Under the pieces are notes generated by a model. The model was not told where the DNA came from. It did not search any database and worked only from the letters and a program-made list of their open reading frames with translations. The position numbers and the translations under genes are program-made. Of a stretch of 64,000 nt of DNA, positions 25,440-56,113 are shown piece by piece. This DNA comes from Candidatus Gottesmanbacteria bacterium. GTDB lineage: Bacteria > Patescibacteriota > Microgenomatia > UBA10105 > UBA927. The stretch covers positions 454 through 64,453 of the forward strand of contig JAHFKN010000006.1 of the NCBI GenBank assembly GCA_023245355.1. Direction: 5' to 3'. The first letter of the stretch is position 1. The number at the start of each line of letters is the position of its first letter.

Positions 25440-26087
25440 CTAAAGTGCATGGTTTGCAAGGTTAGCCTGTAAGCCCTCCAAATGATTTGTATTATTTACT
25501 TCACTCACTTTTACTGCTCCGTCGGTTATGTTCAGCTTCGTAATGGCTGCAGGTTGCAGCTCCATATTCCAGAGCATATCCTGCTCTATACCCAACATAT
25601 CGGTAAGCAGCGCACGGACAATATTATCATGGGTTACGACCGCCGTGGTTCCGCGAATTGTCGGCAGCAGTTCTTTCCACCACCGCAATGCACGTTCCCG
25701 CGTTTCCGCGTACGTTTCTCCACCAGGAAAAGCGGCTTTCGACGGCTGTGTTTGCCACGTGCGGTATTCCTCCGGCCATAGCTTCGCAATCACATGAACG
25801 TTTTTTCCTTCCCACGCTCCGTGATTTGTCTCGATAATGTCCGGATCTATTTCTACCGTCAGTCCGTCGTGCCATTTGGCGATAGCGTCTGCCGTATCAC
25901 GCGTGCGCTTCAGGGGACTTGCGATGATGCGGTCAATCGGTTTTTCCGCAAGAAAAGCTCCAAGTGCGTTCACTTGTTTTTCTCCCAGCGCCGACAGCTT
26001 GGTATCATAGGTTTGTCCCTGATATATTCCCTGCGTATTGGCCACGGATTCCCCGTGCCTGATAAGATACACAACGTTTTCGACCAT
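25440..26087 (-). CDS. Histidine phosphatase family protein (phosphoglycerate mutase-like); candidate phosphoserine phosphatase
   Basis: RHGES catalytic motif (VYLIRHGESVANTQG). The start is ATG at 26087, preceded by a GGAGGTG RBS. It is co-transcribed with serS behind a T-box-like leader. Confidence 0.75.
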   Translation of the reverse strand: MVENVVYLIRHGESVANTQGIYQGQTYDTKLSALGEKQVNALGAFLAEKPIDRIIASPLKRTRDTADAIAKWHDGLTVEIDPDIIETNHGAWEGKNVHVIAKLWPEEYRTWQTQPSKAAFPGGETYAETRERALRWWKELLPTIRGTTAVVTHDNIVRALLTDMLGIEQDMLWNMELQPAAITKLNITDGAVKVSEVNNTNHLEGLQANLANHAL

Positions 26088-26300
26088 AAAAAAACACCTC
26101 CTTTCTTTTGAAAAGACGAGGTGTTCTCGTGGTGCCACTTTTCTTTGTTATATTGTTGCCAATATAATCTTTTGTACTTCTCCGCCATTGTGACGACAAA
26201 GTACGTATTCTGTAACGGGAATTCCCGTACTGCCTTCGATACTCCTGATGTAGTACTTTCGGTAGTCGGCTTTACCGAGGGAAAGTTCGGTATATAACGC
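26088..26300 (-). promoter_or_regulatory. T-box riboswitch-like leader with an antiterminator and an intrinsic terminator that masks the RBS
   Basis: On the minus strand the leader reads AAAAG-UGGCACC-ACGAG-AACAC-CUCGU-CUUUU. This is the canonical helix A1 / 7-nt UGGNACC bulge / helix A2 antiterminator, with N=C complementary to a G73 discriminator. It overlaps a terminator (AACACCUC ... GAGGUGUU followed by UUUUUAUG). About 170 nt of structured leader lie upstream. Confidence 0.55.
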
Positions 26301-26341
26301 CTTTATTTATTTGTTAACTCCCGTATTGTACGCAAATGGTT

Positions 26342-26959: not shown

Positions 26960-27525
26960 TACAGTCCGATCTCTTCATGATGCGCCTGCATGGCAGTAAG
27001 CGTAAGCGCGATAAATTCAGCAAGCGGGATACGGAGTTTTTCCTCGCATTGGGCAATCTGACCACGCTCAACCGCTGCGGCAAATGCTTTCTGGTTCCAT
27101 TTTTTCATCACCGCCTCGGGAGTTACTGCCGCAAGCGACTTTTCCGGACGGACCAATGCGACAGCGACGATAAATCCCGTCAGTTCATCGACCGTCTCCA
27201 GCGCCCACTCCATGTCTCCATCAAGCTCTGCAAGCTTCGTGCGTTTCCTATTATGAGACATGAGTGCATGCACTACCGGTCCTTCTGTCTCCCCCATATC
27301 TTTGAGCCAGGAAAGCGAATGTTTCGTATGCTCATCCGGCGTGTCTTTGGTTTCTTCCCAGTCCGCATCATGGAGTAACCCCAGCGTTTCCCATGTATCA
27401 GGATCCCCGCCGAGTTTAGAAGCGAGAGCCCGCATGGCAAATCCTACGGCATACATATGCCGCCGGAGATTCTGGTTTTTGGTGTGCGCGTGGAGTAAAT
27501 CAGTCGCTTGCTGTTTCGTGATCAT
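26959..27525 (-). CDS. HD domain phosphohydrolase
   Basis: H...HD motif (LLHDADWEE) and a YfbR-like size. Overlaps neighbouring genes in an operon. Confidence 0.6.
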   Translation of the reverse strand: MITKQQATDLLHAHTKNQNLRRHMYAVGFAMRALASKLGGDPDTWETLGLLHDADWEETKDTPDEHTKHSLSWLKDMGETEGPVVHALMSHNRKRTKLAELDGDMEWALETVDELTGFIVAVALVRPEKSLAAVTPEAVMKKWNQKAFAAAVERGQIAQCEEKLRIPLAEFIALTLTAMQAHHEEIGL

Positions 27526-29885
27526 GCCGCGACTCCTTGAAATTCAAGCGTGCCGCCGCAGTATTTCATAATCACTTCCACTGATTCCTGTAAGGACTGT
27601 TCTACTGCTGCAGGAGTTATGTCATACACGCCGTCGACATTTATCCAGATATTTTTGGTTTGTTCCGTTACCATAGTGCGTTTGGCATCGCGGAAATTAA
27701 AGTCTATGTTGTATCCGCCGTTCTGATCATAGTAGGCGATTTCTTTTGCCGTGTATTTGGTTGGCGTGGTATCCCCCAAAAGCAGTATCTCGTCTCCCTC
27801 ACCTGCAAACCGCAGCACGGTCGGGAACGCGACGTTATCGGCATCAAACGCGCCGACGGAAATGCGGTGCTTCATGACAACCAGGTTATATGCATCCACA
27901 CAGGTATTTACCGAGTAGAGTTCTTTCCCCACGGCAATACGCCGAAGCAGCGCTTCCGGCGACGGCCGGCGTGAATGCCAGTCTATCCCCATTTCTTTGT
28001 ACAGTTTCCGGTAACTGATAAGTTCCGGATACGTGCCGAGTTTTTCGGTCGTAAGCCCGGCAAGTGTCGATAGGAATTCCTGTTTTTCTTTTTCCAGACC
28101 AGGATCCGTTTTAGTAATCGTCACTCCTTTGATCAGCGCGACTCCTACGGAAATACTCGGAATACTTTTTTTGAGTTTCGGATCTATGAGGATATACTCC
28201 GGTTTCGCGATAACGGAAACGCCTTGCGCTATGTCAGGCACCGCCTCTTTCGTATTGAGCGTCAGCCGCTCTACTACAGCATCCACCGGGAACTGTTTGA
28301 GCAGCCATCCTGCTCTGGGACCGTGTTCTTTGTCCAACACGACCAGATACAGCGCTTTGAATGCGGACCGAAGGTCAATCCCCTGGGATTTAGCCAGTAC
28401 AAAAAGTTCAGACTGCATTTTTTCCGGGTCGTCCACACGCTGCCAAATAGTTGCTAACGCATTCAGAAATAACCACTGCTCTTTGGTAAAGGTATATTCC
28501 TGTTTGGATTTTGTGGAAATCCGGTACCGGTATTCGTCCGGCGCATAGGTGTCTAACCAGACGCGTGCATACTTCCCGCGGTTTTCCAACACGGCTTTTT
28601 CCTCTTTGGTCAGTGCGGAACCTTTTATCGCACTGAATTTGGAAACCAAATCCACATTTGGAAGCTGCATGAAGTTGGCGACATCCCGGAAACGAGGCAC
28701 AAACATGGCTTTTTTGTCCGGAATATCCTGAATCTGTGACAACTCAAACGCCCGTGCCAGGCCCTCGTCTGACCCGTCTATGAACGCCTGCCAGCACCGG
28801 TCGTATTCGTCGAACAGATCCGGGATAGCCATGGTACCCATCGGGTCAAACTCGATAGCCTGACGGTAATCGGTCCGGGTAAACAAAAATCTGCCGACTT
28901 CCGCAGGCAACAGGGATGTAAGGTCGCGTCCTTTGAGTCCCAACCCTTTGGACGAGGACATTTTCTTCCCGCCGATCAGGAAAAACTCATACGGGAGGTT
29001 ATAGGGATTGTCGATATGGAACACGTCTTTGCACAGTTCTTTGGCAATATCCCGCGAGCCACCTGCGGACGAATGGTCTTTACCCGCTCCCTCTATGGTG
29101 ACACCCAGCACTTTCCAGTGTGCCGGCCAGTCCACTTTCCACGGAAGTTTGCCCGGGTGATGCTTGCTGTCGTTAGGATCCGTAAACGGACTCGTTTTTC
29201 CTGTGTATCCGCACCCCCGCGCCCAGGTAACCATATCAGGTTCGCAGGTGTACTCTACCATTGTTCCATCCCACCCGTGTACCCTCGTGGTTCCCAGTCT
29301 GCCGCATTTTTCGCAGATAACCTGCAAAGGTAGCCAGCCTTTGTCGCGTTTTTTGCTGCCGCTTACCCGCTGATAGATATCCTGTATGCGTGTAGCATTA
29401 TCCAGCGCTTCGCGGATGACGCCGTCGAATAGGCCCTTATGATACATATCCCAGGAAGAACGGAATTCTGCCCGCACTCCCAAACTTACCAATACGCTTT
29501 GGAAATCTTTGGTAAAGTACTCGGCAAAACTTGTAAACCCGGGCTCAGGCGATTTGGCCAGGCGCAGCGGTTTGCCCAGCTCATCTTTCATGCGTGAGAG
29601 TTCCGGCGGCAGTCCGTCTACCGGGTCGAAATCGTTGAAAATGTACGTGAATGTCGCTTTCACCCCGGCATCGACCAGCGACCGGTACGCCAGGTCATGC
29701 ACGAGCGGCCCGCGGAGCGAACCGATATGCGCAAACCCGGACGGGGTAAACATGTCGTCCACCCAATACGGCTTGTGACTTCCTGATGCAATTATTTCGT
29801 GAGCGATCCTGTCTGACCAGAACATAGGTATATTATAACGAAAAACCCCGCTTGTGGCGGGGTTCATTTTTTCCTTCTTCTCCAA
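27522..29885 (-). CDS. lysK: Class I lysyl-tRNA synthetase with a C-terminal B3/4-like (PheT editing-domain-like) extension
   Basis: Class I HIGH-like motif (FAHIGSLRG) and KMSKS motif (KMSSSKG), in LysK-like order. About 257 extra C-terminal residues resemble the B3/4 domain (SVNTCVDAYNLVV..ISVGAFDAD..RFAGEGDEI..YYDQNGGYN). Confidence 0.8.
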   Translation of the reverse strand: MEKKEKMNPATSGVFRYNIPMFWSDRIAHEIIASGSHKPYWVDDMFTPSGFAHIGSLRGPLVHDLAYRSLVDAGVKATFTYIFNDFDPVDGLPPELSRMKDELGKPLRLAKSPEPGFTSFAEYFTKDFQSVLVSLGVRAEFRSSWDMYHKGLFDGVIREALDNATRIQDIYQRVSGSKKRDKGWLPLQVICEKCGRLGTTRVHGWDGTMVEYTCEPDMVTWARGCGYTGKTSPFTDPNDSKHHPGKLPWKVDWPAHWKVLGVTIEGAGKDHSSAGGSRDIAKELCKDVFHIDNPYNLPYEFFLIGGKKMSSSKGLGLKGRDLTSLLPAEVGRFLFTRTDYRQAIEFDPMGTMAIPDLFDEYDRCWQAFIDGSDEGLARAFELSQIQDIPDKKAMFVPRFRDVANFMQLPNVDLVSKFSAIKGSALTKEEKAVLENRGKYARVWLDTYAPDEYRYRISTKSKQEYTFTKEQWLFLNALATIWQRVDDPEKMQSELFVLAKSQGIDLRSAFKALYLVVLDKEHGPRAGWLLKQFPVDAVVERLTLNTKEAVPDIAQGVSVIAKPEYILIDPKLKKSIPSISVGVALIKGVTITKTDPGLEKEKQEFLSTLAGLTTEKLGTYPELISYRKLYKEMGIDWHSRRPSPEALLRRIAVGKELYSVNTCVDAYNLVVMKHRISVGAFDADNVAFPTVLRFAGEGDEILLLGDTTPTKYTAKEIAYYDQNGGYNIDFNFRDAKRTMVTEQTKNIWINVDGVYDITPAAVEQSLQESVEVIMKYCGGTLEFQGVAA

Positions 29886-32047: not shown

Positions 32048-32053
32048 TACGTG

Positions 32054-32127
32054 TACCCCGTGCCGGATTCGAACCGGCGATCTATACCTTGAGAAGGTAT
32101 CGTCCTAGGCCGCTAGACGAACGGGGC
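32054..32127 (-). tRNA. tRNA-Glu (anticodon CUC)
   Basis: Cloverleaf derived by hand: GCCCCGU acceptor stem, UCUAGCGGCCUAGGAC D-arm as in bacterial tRNA-Glu, anticodon stem AUACC/GGUAU with loop UUCUCAA, and T-arm GCCGG-UUCGAAU-CCGGC. 74 nt; CCA is not encoded. Confidence 0.8.
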
Positions 32128-55926: not shown

Positions 55927-55997
55927 TGCGGGATCGTATAACGGTAGTACGCATCCCTCTGGAGGATGTTATCTTGGTTCGAATCCAAGTCCCGCAG
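55927..55997 (+). tRNA. tRNA-Gln (anticodon CUG)
   Basis: Hand-folded: U1-A72 acceptor (UGCGGGA/UCCCGCA), 3-bp D-stem GUA/UAC with a GG loop, anticodon stem CAUCC/GGAUG with loop CUCUGGA, T-arm CUUGG-UUCGAAU-CCAAG, discriminator G. CCA is not encoded. An 11-bp inverted repeat flanks it (55916-55926 / 55997-56007). Confidence 0.75.
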
Positions 55998-56113
55998 CAG
56001 TGTTGATAAGCACGAACAAACATCCAAATCCCGCAGCATATACAAAATTTGTCCGCCGGAATTTTTTTCGCGCAAACGCCGACAGCATCGAATACTGGTA
56101 CAATAGCCTCATC

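Follow-up and report, generated by a model that had tools for sequence, protein, structure and literature searches.

The leader of a phosphatase-serS operon in Microgenomates-type Patescibacteria is very likely a miniaturised serine T-box riboswitch

The present analysis concerns a stretch of 64,000 nucleotides from Candidatus Gottesmanbacteria bacterium (GenBank assembly GCA_023245355.1, contig JAHFKN010000006.1, positions 454 to 64,453), hereafter called the window, and more specifically the leader that precedes, on its minus strand, the genes encoding a histidine phosphatase and the seryl-tRNA synthetase SerS. This leader is very likely a miniaturised serine T-box riboswitch controlling the phosphatase-serS operon in Microgenomates-type Patescibacteria (Candidate Phyla Radiation, CPR). 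The elements of the riboswitch, the mutual exclusivity of its antiterminator and terminator, the covariation of its helices, the conservation of a UCC codon and of a UGGC sequence and the operon context were all directly observed, and they carry this conclusion.

A T-box at this place had been proposed in a first-pass annotation of the sequence, and the proposal is borne out by a covariance model (CM) search, by the fold of the leader and by the covariation of its helices in relatives. Positions 26306-26109 match the Rfam T-box model (RF00230) over its entire length (model positions 1-219; 47.8 bits; E = 2e-9 when 601 nt are searched and 2.1e-7 for all 64 kb of the window). Stem II, the IIA hairpin and its F-box, Stem III and the sequence of the T-box are in register in this match. 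This is the sole non-tRNA match at E ≤ 0.01 in the whole window. Furthermore, the fold of the 262-nt leader (z = -4.35) is more stable than those of all 200 shuffles.

The antiterminator, made of helices A1 and A2 and of the bulge UGGCACC, and a competing intrinsic terminator with the Shine-Dalgarno (SD) sequence in its 3′ arm are both present on the minus strand, where the first-pass annotation had placed them (Table 1). The 5′ arm of the terminator takes up the loop and the 3′ strand of A2, and the two structures have positions 26125-26110 in common; they are therefore mutually exclusive. Their calculated energies are -8.5 kcal/mol for the antiterminator and -15.4 kcal/mol for the terminator alone, the minimum free energy (MFE) of the segment being -17.5 kcal/mol. 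The U tract that ends the terminator lies directly before the ATG at 26087 and constitutes the spacer between the SD and the start codon.

A canonical Stem I, with K-turn, specifier loop and distal AG bulge, had been expected further upstream. The window carries instead a 5-bp hairpin, separated from a 3-bp base helix by an internal loop that is asymmetric and has no tandem G.A pairs, and its Stem I has no specifier side-loop, no AG bulge, no distal loop and no GA-GA K-turn. Without AG bulge and distal loop, it has no double-T-loop platform for the tRNA elbow. It should also be emphasized that the position of the promoter leaves too little space for a longer Stem I. The lack of a Stem I or specifier loop had been put forward as an argument against a T-box; such a criterion would wrongly reject a true T-box of the ultrashort type. 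The structured leader spans about 215-230 nt (from about 26318/26301 to 26088) rather than the roughly 170 nt first estimated. Downstream of Stem I, the internal loop of Stem II may adopt an S-turn-like geometry, judging from its sequence, and an xxAAG/GAG sequence is conserved 5′ of Stem III. The linker hairpin between the F-box and the RAG motif is not found in all relatives; two of them (L005 and L041) have a single Stem III, to which the tip of this hairpin is homologous. A pairing suggested by RNAfold between the GCU that follows Stem I and the AGC that follows the F-box was rejected: in L030, L033 and the window, covariation supports the base helix alone.

We compared 80 genome loci, of which 41 belong to the CPR (L003-L043) and 39 do not (up to L082). 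Close homologues of the phosphatase were found only in Patescibacteria/CPR, within the Microgenomates group (Gottesman-, Collier-, Ames- and Woesebacteria). The same leader precedes the phosphatase-serS pair in 38 of the 41 CPR loci, and serS directly follows the phosphatase gene in all 39 CPR loci with enough downstream sequence, in agreement with the operon initially proposed. Neither serS nor this leader occurs in the 39 loci from outside the CPR (Chloroflexota, Acidimicrobiia and others; 28-36% identity), and R1, a model of the CPR decoding domain, gave no match in them. Three CPR loci (L007, L029 and L035) keep the gene pair and have no detectable T-box leader; since only ~38 nt separate rdgB from the phosphatase gene in L007, the T-box was lost or replaced in some lineages. 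Many metagenome-assembled genomes entitled "uncultured Gammaproteobacteria/Pseudomonadales" (L009-L012, L015, L016, L018, L019 and others) carry the CPR-type synteny together with the mini T-box, and these taxonomic labels appear to be wrong.

The alignment of homologous leaders that the first-pass annotation had recommended revealed strong covariation and a conserved arrangement of bulge and terminator. The cleaner evidence comes from alignments that were not fitted to a structure. In A4, which was made with MAFFT from the window's clade (ten leaders) and was evaluated on the structure of the window, 95.3% of the cells are paired (82.7% after shuffling and 42-47% when the partners are slid), and 21 of the 42 pairs show double-sided changes, a count reached by none of 500 shuffles. 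Compensatory pairs occur in the Stem I hairpin (3/5, with 100% pairing), in the basal and upper helices of Stem II (4/6 and 4/5), in Stem III (7/8), in A1 (2/6) and in A2 (1/5). The antiterminator is 98-100% paired, its compensatory changes being found in L016, and the terminator arms are 93% paired. Stem IIA is invariant in A4 and varies as CGG/CCG, CGU/ACG and CGUA/UACG across the wider family. In a second unfitted alignment (17 leaders from other clades), RNAalifold predicted by itself the basal helix of Stem II, with compensatory changes in all six pairs, as well as IIA. A CM-fitted alignment of 30 leaders, which is biased towards its model, shows 89.2% pairing compared to 68.3% after shuffling, and 118 double-change cells compared to 34. 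When arms were extracted from 26 distinct relatives, Stem I was 98.5% paired (5/5 positions compensatory) and Stem II 96.6% (every position compensatory), percentages that are supportive only because the arms were chosen partly by complementarity. Helix A1 also covaries across the wider family, according to arms curated by hand, and hence biased towards pairing, after a greedy A1/A2 finder had taken terminator pairings in several clades. The possible IIB pseudoknot includes one covarying pair (AU, UA, CG, GU, UG); it comprises few pairs and the statistics are weak.

Other clades carry even smaller leaders, in which Stem II is a 5-6-bp hairpin with a loop of the GGUAACAA or GUCGCAA type and no Stem III follows a conserved AAUURAGUA stretch. 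Amesbacteria-type leaders (L015, L017, L030, L031, L033 and L040) appear to be devoid of both helix A2 and Stem III: UGGCACC and about 5 nt form a terminal loop closed by A1 (for example, GUUGAGG-UGGCACCUGAAA-CCGCAAC), and the terminator overlaps the 3′ strand of A1. Most clades other than that of the window share a conserved A.G mismatch at the third position of A1.

The identity of the specifier is given by the terminal loop of Stem I. All leaders have a Stem I hairpin of 4-7 bp that ends in a loop of 6-8 nt, and T, C and C are the only invariant loop columns in the alignment of 36 Stem I modules. The loops (ACUUUCCC, ACAUUCCC, CUUUCCA, AUUCCA, CUUCCAA, AAUCCAA, CAUCCAA and CCUCCAA) have no other triplet in common, which excludes UUC, CUU and CCC and designates UCC as the specifier. 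The T-box bulge contains UGGC in the window and in 37 of 38 loci, the last one (L042) having UGGU, and its full sequence is UGGCACC in almost every leader. As a rule, bacterial tRNA-Ser has a G73 discriminator. Therefore, invariant UCC and UGGC together point to tRNA-Ser(GGA) with G73 as the effector, and we infer that this tRNA is the one bound in the source genome. The first-pass annotation had reached tRNA-Ser from UGGC and from the downstream serS, and UCC, invariant in the 36 leaders, now adds to them. Its candidate specifiers did not hold up: AGU-A (26257-26254 and 26243-26240) and UCG-A (26239-26236) form part of the Stem II strands, and relatives do not conserve them.

A metagenome pattern scan made it possible to check independently that the codon lies, as a rule, at the 3′ side of the terminal loop. 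Among its 80 loci, which mostly carry canonical T-boxes, R1 picked three leaders of the same design. The first one (L090) displays UCC before serS. The second one (L117, minus strand, cmsearch match 1485-1380) has the loop AUGGUUGGG (UGG-G) and UGGC before trpS (TIGR00233, 282 bits); its terminator is detached from the SD, and trpS has its own SD. The third one (L122, minus strand, 2668-2563) has the loop UUUACGUCG (GUC-G) and UGGU before a valS-like gene. The occurrence of UGG before trpS and of GUC before a valS-like gene indicates that the mini design is not specific for Ser. The ValRS-like open reading frame of L122 begins 255 nt after the T-box and contains a HAD-type hydrolase insertion (TIGR02253, residues ~241-390).

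Table 1. Leader elements and adjacent genes on the minus strand of the window
Feature	Positions	Strand	Description	Basis
rdgB	26959-26342	-	Gene upstream of the leader; its end overlaps the promoter	
Sigma-70-like promoter	26353-26325	-	TTGACA-17 nt-TACAAT; 11/12 consensus positions match	
Conserved 5′ leader	26318-26302	-	UUAACAAAUAAAUAAAG	Near-invariant columns 8-24 of alignment A4
Ultrashort Stem I	26301-26268	-	Base helix of 3 bp, GGC (26301-26299) with GCC (26270-26268); hairpin of 5 bp, ACCGA (26291-26287) with UCGGU (26278-26274); 8-nt terminal loop ACUUUCCC	Rfam alignment; covariation
Specifier	26282-26280	-	UCC (Ser), then C26279	Only invariant loop columns
Stem II	26266-26229	-	Basal helix ACUACC/GGCAGU; purine-rich internal loop GAAA/CGAA; upper helix GUACU/AGUAU	Covariation; RNAalifold
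Stem IIA, F-box and possible IIB pseudoknot	26227-26207	-	IIA, CGGG (26227-26224) with CCCG (26219-26216); F-box CCCGUUA (26219-26213); possible IIB, loop 26222-26220 with AAU (26209-26207)	Conservation; covariation
Extra linker hairpin	26204-26174	-	GUACUUU..GAAGUAC around UCGUCA..UGGCGG	MFE fold; alignment A4
RAG motif and Stem III	26171-26148	-	AAG (26171-26169); 8-bp helix, UUAUAUUG (26167-26160) with CAAUAUAA (26155-26148); loop GCAA	Rfam alignment; covariation
Antiterminator	26143-26110	-	A1, GAAAAG (26143-26138) with CUUUUC (26115-26110); 7-nt T-box bulge UGGCACC (26137-26131), including UGGC (26137-26134); A2, ACGAG (26130-26126) with CUCGU (26120-26116)	Sequence; Rfam alignment; covariation
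Intrinsic terminator and SD sequestrator	26125-26088	-	Arms AACACCUC (26125-26118) and GAGGUGUU (26100-26093); inner helix UCUUU/AAAGA; SD GGAGG (26101-26097); U7 (26094-26088)	Fold energies; A4 pairing
His_Phos_1 gene (histidine phosphatase superfamily)	26087-25440	-	215 amino acids, RHG motif; first gene of the operon	PF00300, 183.5 bits
serS	25424-24180	-	Seryl-tRNA synthetase, 414 amino acids	TIGR00414, 465 bits (cut-off 301.65)

The specifier rule and the pairing of UGGN with NCCA are established for T-boxes, as are their preferred use of C as the third specifier base and the roles of the F-box and of the RAG motif (PMC7583486, PMC11297988). In the mechanism that we propose, transcription would start from the leader's own promoter near 26318, and UCC would be offered in the terminal loop of the 5-bp Stem I hairpin, which has no elbow-binding distal platform, to the anticodon of tRNA-Ser(GGA). 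By analogy with the T-boxes of ileS genes that have an ultrashort Stem I, Stem II and the IIA/B-F-box element presumably dock against the codon-anticodon helix and buttress it. The 3′-GCCA end of an uncharged tRNA-Ser would pair with UGGC and, with the contacts of the RAG motif and Stem III, would stabilise the weak antiterminator; RNA polymerase would then read through and the SD would stay free. A charged Ser-tRNA would be blocked by its aminoacyl group, the stronger terminator would form and transcripts would end in the U7 tract. In a full-length RNA, the terminator helix would also bury the SD.

As for the mode of output, we favour transcription termination as the primary one, masking of the SD being a second layer in this window. 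Each of the ten leaders in the clade of the window has a conserved run of six or seven U, and a hairpin followed by U5-7 and overlapping the antiterminator is found in at least 26 of the 38 leaders of the family. In at least 12 of these family leaders, hairpin and U run lie 15-190 nt upstream of the start codon (18-190 nt in L008, L011, L015, L016, L030, L033, L034, L038 and L042 and in the trpS leader L117), distances that are about 10 nt too long because they rely on tblastn-based starts; where this was inspected (L008 and L011), the gene has its own SD. Hairpins and U runs detached from the SD indicate that termination is conserved, and not only SD masking. L008 (2372-2500) and L011 (2190-2318) carry a ~120-nt insert between the T-box terminator and the start of the phosphatase gene, which holds a long inverted repeat (GGUUAGUUUAUAAGCGAAUUCUUAUUCGCGAAUUUACUAACC) and a new SD. 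In L016, a ~170-nt spacer ends in a second hairpin with U7 that resembles the terminator/SD structure of the window.

A purely translational T-box like those of Actinobacteria, in which AACACCUC/GAGGUGUU would be nothing but an SD sequestrator and U7 a mere spacer between SD and AUG, appears unlikely. Such a device would account for an SD that lies inside the helix and for a U run that abuts the ATG. It would also agree with the fact that all earlier-described T-boxes with an ultrashort Stem I act on translation, and with the argument, made in reviews, that tRNA binding is too slow for co-transcriptional decisions (PMC7583486). Furthermore, at least nine members of the family do not have the U run (L006, L023, L024, L026, L032, L036, L037 and L039 among them), and these relatives may work translationally. 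However, the helix and U7 of the window make up a textbook intrinsic terminator, all ten leaders of its clade keep the U run, and in the relatives where hairpin and U run lie far upstream of the start codon, masking of the SD is impossible.

A T-box that responds to another amino acid is far less probable still. CUU (Leu), UUU or UUC (Phe), CCC (Pro) and ACU (Thr) of ACUUUCCC, as well as AGU or UCG, could each be read as the codon, since all these triplets occur in the loop or in the leader of the window, and UCC is followed there by C and not by the usual purine. However, the loops of relatives such as AUUCCA, CUUCCAA, AAUCCAA, CAUCCAA and CCUCCAA retain only UCC, the regulated gene is serS, and AGU-A and UCG-A lie in paired or S-turn-like strands of Stem II and are absent from L008, L011, L014 and L041. 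The G73 that UGGC needs fits tRNA-Ser and is not known from bacterial tRNA-Phe, -Leu, -Pro or -Thr. It is even harder to believe that the leader senses no tRNA at all and is a protein- or metabolite-dependent attenuator (PyrR-like, for example) or a structured 5′ untranslated region with a leaky terminator. A weak Rfam PyrR match (26206-26086; 25.7 bits, E = 0.24) and the sub-threshold T-box score might suggest so, but Rfam sets the gathering score of PyrR at 54, far above this match, and the locus has no pyr genes. In addition, the codon fits the downstream synthetase for Ser, Trp and Val, and the specifier is conserved along with the T-box bulge, the F-box and the RAG motif. The PyrR match was rejected as reflecting only a hairpin-terminator shape. 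Weak matches to DUF3577, psbA-2 and mir-460 were likewise discarded as shape or chance.

Several observations weigh against the serine T-box that we propose. The RF00230 scan recommended by the first-pass annotation succeeded as an E-value search and failed at the gathering threshold, where Rfam recovers two tRNAs and no T-box in the window (47.8 bits compared to 93) and where none of the 20 CPR relatives' leaders that were scanned reaches the required score. The sole cause of the low score is the replacement of 75 Stem I model positions by 9 nt. Given the E-value search, the covariation and the concordance between codon and gene, a score below the threshold is no refutation. No tRNA-Ser gene that could confirm the GGA anticodon and G73 was found in the window or in the 41 CPR loci. 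Where a K-turn with tandem GA/GA would be expected, at the foot of Stem I, the window reads GCG-UUAUAU/AAA-GCC; of 39 relatives, 12 have a strict GA/GA K-turn at this place (for example, AAGCG-UUU-GA...GA-UGCUU). The basal helix of Stem II contains one A.C mismatch. A purine usually stands 3′ of the specifier, and most relatives have A there, but the clade of the window has C. Finally, according to the review literature, transcriptional T-boxes generally require a long Stem I with a double-T-loop platform for fast tRNA capture (PMC7583486). A terminator coupled to an ultrashort Stem I, as read here from sequence, would depart from this rule and is mechanistically unproven.

The first gene of the operon encodes a branch-1 histidine phosphatase, whose CPR family shares R10, H11, E86, H89 and H153 without exception. 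An E-x-x-H-G motif is also invariant in this family, and we take it to be equivalent to E82/H85 of PspA. The best match of the protein in the PDB, by a clear margin, is the metal-independent "phosphoserine phosphatase 1" of Hydrogenobacter thermophilus (4IJ5/4IJ6; 94.8 bits, E = 6e-26; ~34% identity with 4IJ5 over 197 residues), followed by PGM (60 bits) and CobC (57 bits). The protein shares with PspA/iPSP1 of H. thermophilus the histidine phosphatase fold family, a size of ~211-215 amino acids and the catalytic RHG motif. However, it stays under every NCBIfam equivalog cut-off, with 122 bits for PspA (NF045917; cut-off 350) and a slightly higher score, 138 bits, for the alpha-ribazole phosphatase CobC (cut-off 162.9). 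The control by a Ser T-box and the invariant pairing with serS make a serine-supplying role plausible. That the enzyme is specifically a phosphoserine phosphatase, as its sequence might suggest, is quite possible, if slightly doubtful.

Only 13 nt separate the stop codon of the phosphatase gene from serS. The transcription start of the leader is predicted at about 26318 from the position of the promoter, and similar TTGAC..TAnAAT elements also precede the leaders of relatives. The ~17 nt of the transcript start (26318-26302; UUAACAAGUAAAUAAAG in relatives) are nearly invariant in the window's clade; no pairing partner and no known T-box counterpart were found for them. The only RNA genes detected by Rfam and ARAGORN in the window encode tRNA-Glu(CUC) (32053-32127, minus strand) and tRNA-Gln(CUG) (55927-55998, plus strand). 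The window also encodes a class I lysyl-tRNA synthetase of 787 amino acids (27522-29885, minus strand; PF01921) with a C-terminal fusion to a B3/4 domain (PF03483, PheRS-beta-type), and the gene order LysS-HD-RdgB-phosphatase-SerS was found again in several relatives.

T-boxes are a model system for RNA-RNA sensing. In current reviews, transcriptional control goes with a long Stem I that quickly captures the tRNA elbow, and the ultrashort Stem I of Actinobacteria goes with translational control, which is slow and reversible. Thanks to the conserved, covarying family described here, in which an intrinsic terminator accompanies an ultrashort Stem I, this kinetic argument can be put directly to the test on small RNAs of ~110-215 nt. 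Our results raise the question of lineage-wide mini T-boxes in Microgenomates-type CPR bacteria and on some metagenome contigs, which would respond to tRNA-Ser, -Trp or -Val through a codon in the terminal loop, would have no elbow platform, would have lost Stem III and helix A2 in some clades and would terminate transcription; we consider the chances that this reading is right to be evenly balanced. If true, a long Stem I would not be a general requirement for co-transcriptional T-box switching, and the Ser member would define a minimal serine regulon made of a PspA-type phosphoserine phosphatase and SerS. The T-box also links a widespread CPR histidine phosphatase to serine. Furthermore, curated thresholds (the Rfam gathering score and a TBDB class II restricted to Actinobacteria) overlook riboswitches in reduced CPR genomes: TBDB ran its short-Stem-I model only on Actinobacteria and on Rfam-detected sequences (PMC7778990). 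A 2024 perspective on Patescibacteria names riboswitches only as prospective tools (PMC11665869). Within the searchable full-text literature, native riboswitches and T-boxes turned out not to be described for CPR, Patescibacteria or Microgenomates, which is not proof of absence.

Nothing is unusual about a Ser T-box before serS; what is unusual is the architecture of this one, its apparent mode of action and its phylum. The Ser T-box regulon and its motifs are known (PMC8002221, PMC7583486). Like the canonical RF00230 T-boxes that precede serS, serA and serC in Firmicutes, the leader of the window has a UGGNACC bulge between A1 and A2, a mutually exclusive terminator, a Stem II, a Stem IIA with an F-box (CCGUUA) and a possible IIB, a RAG motif with Stem III and a UCC specifier, and it regulates serS. 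It differs from them by a Stem I cut down to a 5-bp hairpin, by a score that is half of the Rfam gathering score, by an SD included in the 3′ arm of the terminator, by a U tract that serves as the SD-AUG spacer and by its CPR host.

The closest known design is the actinobacterial ileS T-box, a class II, translational T-box with an ultrashort Stem I (Sherwood et al. 2015; 6UFG, 6UFM; via PMC7583486). Both carry the specifier on a short Stem I, in its apical loop, make no elbow contact, retain Stem II and, as it appears, IIA/B, which are essential in the ileS system, and include the SD within the helix that competes with the antiterminator or antisequestrator. However, the window's family belongs to another phylum and is directed to Ser (Trp and Val in related leaders) and not to Ile, and the effector expected for the window is a class II tRNA with a long variable arm. 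In contrast to the ileS T-box, some relatives of the window are devoid of Stem III and/or helix A2. Finally, the window's clade has a conserved run of six or seven U after the competing helix, and in many relatives hairpin and U run are detached from the SD, implying termination.

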